A stretch of 64,000 nt of DNA from NCBI RefSeq assembly GCF_044647545.1, contig NZ_CP172818.1. One strand, written 5' to 3'. This document shows, one piece after another, positions 14,767 to 15,309 of this stretch; the first letter of the stretch is position 1, and each line of letters starts with the position of its first letter. This DNA is from Escherichia coli (GTDB lineage: Bacteria; Pseudomonadota; Gammaproteobacteria; Enterobacterales; Enterobacteriaceae). The translations under genes and the position numbers were made by a program. The notes below the pieces were generated by a model, which saw nothing but the letters and a program-made list of their open reading frames with translations, made no database searches and was not told the DNA's origin.

Positions 14767-14785
14767 GCGAATTTTAGTTCACATA

Positions 14786-14810
14786 GACCCTGCTTCGGCG
14801 GGGTTTTTTT
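14786..14810 (+). terminator. Rho-independent terminator of narGHJI
   Basis: GC-rich hairpin (ccctgcttcggcgggg) followed by a T7 run at 14804-14810, 20 bp after the narI stop. Confidence 0.6.
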
Positions 14811-14947
14811 ATGGGCACGGTGCGGGGTGAGTTGTCGGATGCGCTTCGCTTATCCGAACTTCAGGGGAGGATATTTTAGGTCCGGTAAACGCGGTGCCAT
14901 CGGGCAGAATTAGCTCGGAGTAACAGGTTTTGAGTATTTCAGGAAGT
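14811..14947 (-). other. 3' trailer region of the tyrTV transcript (rtT/tpr-type region)
   Basis: Lies immediately downstream (minus strand) of tyrV; contains a REP-like segment (gtcggatgcgcttcgcttatccgaac); assignment is from established knowledge of the tyrT locus, not from a recognisable ORF. Confidence 0.3.
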
Positions 14948-15032
14948 TGGTGGTGGGGGAAGGATTCGAACCTTCGAAGTCGATGACGGCAGATTTACAG
15001 TCTGCTCCCTTTGGCCGCTCGGGAACCCCACC
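14948..15032 (-). tRNA. tyrV: tRNA-Tyr (anticodon GUA), distal copy
   Basis: 85-nt minus-strand sequence GGTGGGGTTCCCGAGCGGCCAAAGGGAGCAGACTGTAAATCTGCCGTCATCGACTTCGAAGGTTCGAATCCTTCCCCCACCACCA with encoded CCA; anticodon loop CUGUAAA. Confidence 0.95.
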
Positions 15033-15065
15033 AGGGGTAATTCAAATTCTGAGGTAATGCTTGAA

Positions 15066-15150
15066 TGGTGGTGGGGGAAGGATTCGAACCTTCGAAGTCG
15101 ATGACGGCAGATTTACAGTCTGCTCCCTTTGGCCGCTCGGGAACCCCACC
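15066..15150 (-). tRNA. tyrT: tRNA-Tyr (anticodon GUA), promoter-proximal copy
   Basis: Identical 85-nt tRNA-Tyr sequence 33 bp upstream (in transcript sense) of the first copy. Confidence 0.95.
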
Positions 15151-15190
15151 ACGGGGTAATGCTTTTTACTGGCCTGCTCCCTTATCGGGA

Positions 15191-15230
15191 AGCGGGGCGC
15201 ATCATATCAAATGACGCGCCGCTGTAAAGT
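15191..15230 (-). promoter_or_regulatory. tyrT promoter (-35 TTTACA, -10 TATGATG, GC-rich discriminator)
   Basis: Minus-sense TTTACAGCGGCGCGTCATTTGATATGATGCGCCCCGCTTCCC matches the classical stringently controlled tyrT promoter; -35 is plus 15223-15228 and -10 is plus 15201-15207. Confidence 0.8.
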
Positions 15231-15309
15231 GTTACGTTGAGAAAAATGAACTGGTTGCGTAATTTTCACCCGTAACGGATTAAAGGTAACCAGTTATTTT
15301 TGCTGGCGA

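Follow-up and report, generated by a model that had tools for sequence, protein, structure and literature searches.

A tyrT operon of Escherichia coli without RtT repeat units

Two tRNA-Tyr genes lie between purU and narI in the stretch of Escherichia coli DNA analysed here (64 kb, hereafter the window), separated by a short spacer and followed almost directly by narI. The textbook tyrT operon of K-12 carries 3.14 repeats, the rtT RNA and tpr. The question is whether the compact locus is the same operon and, if so, whether its missing repeats are a natural state of the chromosome or were lost when tandem repeats collapsed during assembly, as a sequence-only reading of the window had suspected.

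Anatomy of the locus and comparison with K-12

Across the 64-kb window ARAGORN identifies exactly two tRNA-Tyr genes (anticodon GTA), both on the minus strand, and no other tRNA; the Rfam tRNA model matches at both positions with 53.4 bits. The genes are identical across 85 nt (the repeat reaches 90 nt at 99% in the repeat search), two such copies far exceed chance expectation, and both carry an encoded CCA. The sequence-only reading had described two identical 85-nt genes on the minus strand with a 33-bp spacer, which ARAGORN, Rfam and the repeat search confirm, and had put about 180 bp between the distal gene and the narI stop; the measured distance is 181 bp, since the narI ORF stops at 14766. 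The features of the locus are as follows.

14089–14766, plus strand: narI, respiratory nitrate reductase gamma subunit (225-aa ORF; annotated as narI in the co-linear 4973, K-12 and IAI39)
14785–14806, plus strand: intrinsic terminator of narI, a GC hairpin followed by T7 (terminator scan and sequence reading)
14767–14947, minus strand: trailer of the tyrT transcript, 181 nt (alignment with the K-12 and MS1679 junctions of unit end and trailer)
14948–15032, minus strand: distal tRNA-Tyr(GUA), the tyrV equivalent, CCA encoded (ARAGORN, Rfam; identical to the K-12 tRNA)
15033–15065, minus strand: inter-tRNA spacer, 33 nt (the last 34 nt of the 209-nt K-12 spacer minus 1 nt)
15066–15150, minus strand: promoter-proximal tRNA-Tyr(GUA), tyrT (ARAGORN, Rfam)
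15151–15200, minus strand: GC-rich discriminator GCGCCCCGC and 5' leader of about 41 nt (sequence identical to K-12)
15228–15201, minus strand: tyrT promoter, with -35 TTTACA, a 16-nt spacer, TG and -10 TATGAT (sigma-70 promoter scan, 10/12 matches)
15240–15304, minus strand: inverted repeat behind the purU stop, then a T-run (17-nt arms, 82% complementary, 31-nt loop)
15310–16152, minus strand: purU, formyltetrahydrofolate deformylase, upstream of the tRNAs on the same strand (280-aa ORF; annotated in matching genomes)

The gene narI is convergent with the tRNA-Tyr operon. The tyrT promoter region is base-for-base the same as in K-12, and it contains the 50-nt tyrT-promoter homology arm (lhm-T2) of Iraha et al. 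(PMC2887954). That a tyrT promoter is present, as the sequence-only reading had it, is borne out by the promoter scan and the identity with K-12; the description of this promoter as abutting purU is slightly loose, because the -35 hexamer starts 81 nt past the purU stop. The inverted repeat at 15240–15304 is, from its sequence, likely the purU terminator, and it sits within the upstream activating region of the tyrT promoter. The site between purU and narI, the promoter with its discriminator and the two identical tRNA-Tyr(GUA) genes are those of the E. coli tyrT (tyrTV) operon.

The 178-bp RtT units, rttR and tpr that follow tyrV in K-12 are absent from the window. RtT elements were defined as elements of about 130 nt that score at least 45 bits on the RF00391 covariance model; the covariance search finds no RF00391 match in the 64-kb window even at E ≤ 10, and K-12, used as positive control, yields four matches of 133–137 bits. 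A repeat search of the window detects no notable direct repeat besides the tRNAs and no 178-bp repeat. The sequence-only reading had likewise seen none. Downstream RtT units do not define the tyrT operon, because they vary between strains and about 13% of genomes are without them. With zero units in both positions, the window is also without the rtT RNA and the tpr ORF.

The K-12 operon, of which Egan and Landy in 1978, Rossi et al. in 1981 and Bösl and Kersten in 1991 reportedly gave the classical descriptions, shares with the window the purU–narI site, identical promoter, leader and tRNAs, the 34-nt segment before tyrV and a homologous narI-proximal trailer. It differs in having a 209-bp spacer with an RtT-like unit, three distal 178-bp units, the rtT RNA and the tpr ORF (tyrT-tyrV-rttR-tpr). 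The order in a genome of the K-12 lineage is tyrT, 209-bp spacer, tyrV, three 178-bp units and narI, and PGAP annotates four RtT sRNAs there (Rfam 133–137 bits). Alignment with K-12 thus gives the reference a spacer of 209 bp and not of 33 bp, so the longer spacer and the 178-bp repeats that the sequence-only reading had named for the classical locus are right for K-12. The unit inside the K-12 spacer is distinct in sequence, with only about 75% similarity to the distal units. The narI–purU intergenic region measures 1255 bp in K-12 and 543 bp in the window, and the difference of 712 bp is made up exactly by the spacer unit (175 bp), three units of 178 bp and 3 nt that are missing privately from the window.

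Side-by-side comparison of the sequences shows how the two arrangements are related. Every RtT unit is closed by 19 nt, AATCCTTCCCCCACCACCA, the same as the tRNA 3' end, which in the window lies at 14948–14966 in tyrV and at 15066–15084 in tyrT. In the window the 19-mer of tyrT runs directly into the 34-nt segment found before tyrV in K-12, and the 19-mer of tyrV into the sequence that stands behind the 19-mer of the last unit in K-12 and MS1679. The 19-mer itself is invariant across the aligned junctions of the window, K-12 and MS1679. The first ~55 nt of the window trailer align at the junction as a diverged partial RtT unit, which we take to be the classical '0.14 repeat'.

Alleles of the locus in E. 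coli and in related species

The alleles were counted in 5,426 complete E. coli genomes, a clinically biased collection. A census by BLAST of the whole region was set aside, as it joined pieces across the repeats; junction-spanning queries were used instead, with E-value limits reachable only by an uninterrupted junction (single-HSP matches). About 400 of the 5,426 genomes fell into no allele class. The compact spacer occurs in 2908 genomes (53.6%) and the long spacer of the K-12 type in 1921 (35.4%); at least 196 (3.6%) have the tyrT leader, one tRNA and RtT. The compact spacer is therefore the form that most complete E. coli genomes carry, and the arrangement is not the anomaly that the sequence-only reading had implied. 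Some 697 of the 5,426 (12.8%) have no distal-type unit, which leaves about 87% of E. coli genomes with RtT units. The distal tRNA is fused to the narI-side trailer in 115 (2.1%), and the whole architecture of the window recurs in 102 (1.9%).

The K-12 distal unit matches 1–9 places per genome, with a median of two. Individual genomes illustrate the series: strain 4973 has the compact spacer and no unit, MS1679 the compact spacer and one unit, AR13438 a single tRNA and two units, and 99COLEC the long spacer with at least seven distal units and at least eight RtT units in all. Natural alleles therefore range from zero to at least eight units with one or two tRNA genes, in keeping with the earlier description of the locus as recombination-prone. 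Since over half of these genomes carry the compact spacer and roughly every eighth is without RtT, the rtT RNA and Tpr are dispensable in nature. The textbook tyrT operon of K-12 is a single allele, and not the most frequent, of a hypervariable locus; in annotation and assembly, lengths that differ here in steps of about 178 bp are to be expected, and a short locus should not be taken for a mistake.

The 102 genomes of like architecture include IAI39, CE10, strain 4973 and a strain named ST648. In IAI39, CE10 and 4973 the allele is like that of the window, with two tRNAs, a short spacer, no RtT and a trailer that runs straight onto narI. Strain 4973, the closest relative found, has the same zero-copy architecture and is free of SNPs relative to the window across about 40 kb (window positions 1–21962 and 22915 to ~40890); IAI39, with the same architecture, is 99.1–99.3% identical over 34 kb. 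The window allele is natural and inherited in the lineage with IAI39, CE10 and 4973, and is neither a recent event nor an artefact. A repeat-free tyrT allele was already known, the loss of rttR in IAI39 having been published in 2012: Skippington and Ragan record losses of rttR in IAI39 and E2348/69 (PMC3318445).

Further differences between the window and its relatives lie outside the tRNA locus. Between tdk and adhE (window 21963–22914) the window has a remnant of IS4 of about 950 bp with broken IS4-transposase frames, where 4973 and IAI39 have a full-length IS4. At the 3' end of ompW (40343–40981) the identity with 4973 fails from ~40890–40983 onward; 4973 has a Rac-like prophage there (integrase, excisionase, dicB, racR), the window has none, and beyond ompW the sizes and order of its ORFs fit trpABCDE.

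In species-representative genomes a pattern scan listed at least 120 loci, and purU–tyrT synteny is kept in these across Enterobacterales; E. fergusonii, E. marmotae and S. enterica subsp. enterica were not among the matches listed. The spacers of the loci listed fall into size classes of about 22–42, 125–139 and 190–230 nt, and among the matches listed the loci carry one, two or, once, three tRNA-Tyr genes. The three genes are those of Citrobacter sp. MGH106, in tandem with 35-nt spacers (7136–7460 of its extracted locus). Together with the eight or more RtT units of 99COLEC, they mark the extremes of this polymorphism. RtT units are found in E. albertii, Escherichia sp. E1V33, E. coli E69 (the GTDB representative) and Salmonella diarizonae. 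Compact loci that are free of RtT and have a trailer of 184–240 nt onto narI occur in Yokenella, Kluyvera genomosp. 3, Lelliottia and another Enterobacteriaceae isolate. A segment of about 34 nt before the second tRNA-Tyr (TCTCnAGCnTTAnCTCnAAATnTGAATTACCCCT-like) recurs in Escherichia, Enterobacter, Kluyvera, Citrobacter and Yokenella, and may be a processing signal or the ancestral spacer. This distribution of the units and of the ~34-nt spacer suggests that the unit family is old and that its copy number fluctuates repeatedly.

Origin of the repeat-free allele

We consider the window to hold the E. coli tyrT operon (tyrT–tyrV) in a minimal natural allele with zero RtT units, inherited and not an artefact, with a probability of roughly 0.9. 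K-12 and many other strains have RtT units of 175–178 bp between the tRNAs and as a tandem array behind the second tRNA. Direct repeats at three scales (19-mers, whole units and whole tRNA genes) would allow unequal crossing-over or replication slippage to move the copy number up or down, and the window would be what remains once all units have been looped out between 19-mers, each tRNA 3' end being joined directly to the sequence that stands behind the last 19-mer in other strains. We infer that such events generate the series of alleles; the repeat substrates, the junctions placed exactly at 19-mers and the graded series of natural alleles support this mechanism. The zero-unit state would then regain units only by recombination with another allele. 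A similar process has reportedly been seen before: Russell et al. are said to have described, in 1970, unequal recombination between tandem tRNA-Tyr genes as the instability of the su3 duplication. The direct-repeat substrate is the same in both cases; in contrast to the su3 case, the window retains both tRNA copies and misses only the RtT units, although single-copy alleles do exist naturally (AR13438).

The collapse of a K-12-like array by the assembler deserves attention, because tandem 178-bp repeats and duplicated tRNAs are difficult for short-read assemblers and because three nucleotides are missing privately from the window exactly at the edges of the tRNA repeat, a hint of local consensus trouble. 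The missing nucleotides belong to a set of four small deletions that distinguish the window from 4973 over the ~40 kb without SNPs:

~15064: 1 nt, right behind the CCA of tyrT
~14946: 2 nt, right behind the CCA of tyrV
~7715: 1 nt, just 3' of narK
~27018: 4 nt, inside a CDS annotated as 'hypothetical protein' in 4973

None of the four lies in well-supported coding sequence. All 102 genomes of like architecture have the longer form at both tRNA-adjacent sites, with a spacer of 34 nt and a trailer of 183 nt; the values of 33 and 181 in the window reflect the absence of 1 nt and 2 nt directly behind the two CCA ends. Each of the four deletions may be a neutral indel private to the window, or the consensus may be wrong at the edges of the repeats. 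It is very doubtful that the two beside the CCA ends are genuine and linked footprints of a site-directed process (recombinase nicking and repair, or gene conversion), which may act at the 19-bp tRNA-Tyr 3' core that bounds the RtT units and a gene cluster of B2 strains described below; a faulty consensus at the edges of the repeats is far more probable, as are neutral indels unrelated to one another.

Other evidence speaks against a collapse. The same architecture stands in 102 complete genomes, IAI39 and the SNP-free 4973 among them, and the copy number of the window is not below that of these closest finished relatives, which are also zero-copy. Both junctions are clean and match the natural junctions of last 19-mer and trailer. 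A collapse normally spares at least one copy, and it would not delete the unit between the tRNAs, whose sequence is set apart from that of the distal ones (some 75% alike); because at least one unit would be expected to remain and the spacer unit could not be removed in this way, we regard a collapsed assembly as exceedingly improbable, and the suspicion voiced in the sequence-only reading finds no support in these comparisons.

A different history would leave the window as natural as before and reverse the direction of change: the lineage may never have had units, or may have regained an empty allele by homologous recombination, the arrays of the K-12 type being derived expansions. The RtT-free compact loci of Yokenella, Kluyvera and Lelliottia are why the empty state could be ancestral or stem from allelic recombination; these, together with the further isolate, also have the 184–240-nt trailer, compact spacers of 22–42 nt are the commonest among the at least 120 enterobacterial species loci listed, and a similar ~34-nt spacer sequence runs through several genera. 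Yet units occur in E. albertii, E1V33, E69 and Salmonella as well as in about 87% of E. coli genomes, and the trailer of the window itself still opens with a partial unit. The units of E. albertii, E1V33 and Salmonella diarizonae favour loss within E. coli, and published parsimony infers a loss in IAI39 alone (PMC3318445); for a different sRNA, however, that analysis places IAI39 together with SMS-3-5 in one clade. An ancestral or recombined empty state is thus unlikely. Within E. coli a loss of units is the more parsimonious reading and the probable direction of change.

Transcript end and the B2 variant of the locus

In K-12 a single, stringently controlled tyrT promoter yields one precursor with both tRNAs, which is processed by RNase P, RNase E and 3' exonucleases, RNase P removing the 5' leader, and the transcript terminates Rho-dependently inside the repeats. 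The window has no such repeats, and the only intrinsic terminator that the terminator scan finds in its trailer belongs to narI on the opposite strand, where the hairpin has no U-tract behind it when the minus strand is read. The trailer RNA is rich in C and poor in G (C/G 1.4–3.8 over the first ~150 nt, ~1.1 at the narI-proximal end). A C-rich, G-poor and ordinarily folded trailer is compatible with Rho-dependent termination, and the transcript of the window operon probably ends in this manner within the 181-nt trailer. A structured RNA in the trailer was considered and rejected, its folding (z = -0.84) being no better than that of shuffled sequence. Weak Rfam matches near the trailer and the narI 3' end (rsmX, istR, anti-hemB and others, E 0.3–8) were taken as chance, because they are far under the gathering scores and overlap the narI terminator or the tRNAs. 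The trailer also contains a REP-like palindrome at about 14834–14859.

B2 strains such as ST131 probably account for many of the remaining genomes without RtT, as judged from one ST131 and one ST73 genome. The B2/ST131-type tyrTV allele (Ecol_AZ159, ATCC 25922) shares with the window the compact 33-nt spacer. ST131 Ecol_AZ159, like the window, has no RtT unit, and unlike the window it has a lipid-modifying cluster of seven genes and about 7 kb between tyrV and narI (318–7374 of its extracted locus). The window has no foreign gene block 3' of tyrV, where narI follows after only 181 bp, and its locus does not look like an insertion site of a tRNA-linked genomic island. An origin of the RtT units or of the B2 cluster by integration at an att site was rejected, because the ST131 cluster contains no integrase and lacks a 19-mer at its far end.

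The cluster encodes a fatty-acid desaturase, a sterol desaturase, a PAP2 phosphatase, an F390-synthetase-like protein, an MBL hydrolase, an epimerase and a KAS III. In Ecol_AZ159 and ATCC 25922 it is flanked by narI on one side and by tyrV, or the single RtT unit of tyrV, on the other. It begins 16 bp behind the 19-mer in place of the usual trailer, and at its other side a 16-nt tandem repeat (GATAATGTTTGGTTTA in four copies) adjoins the narI stop.
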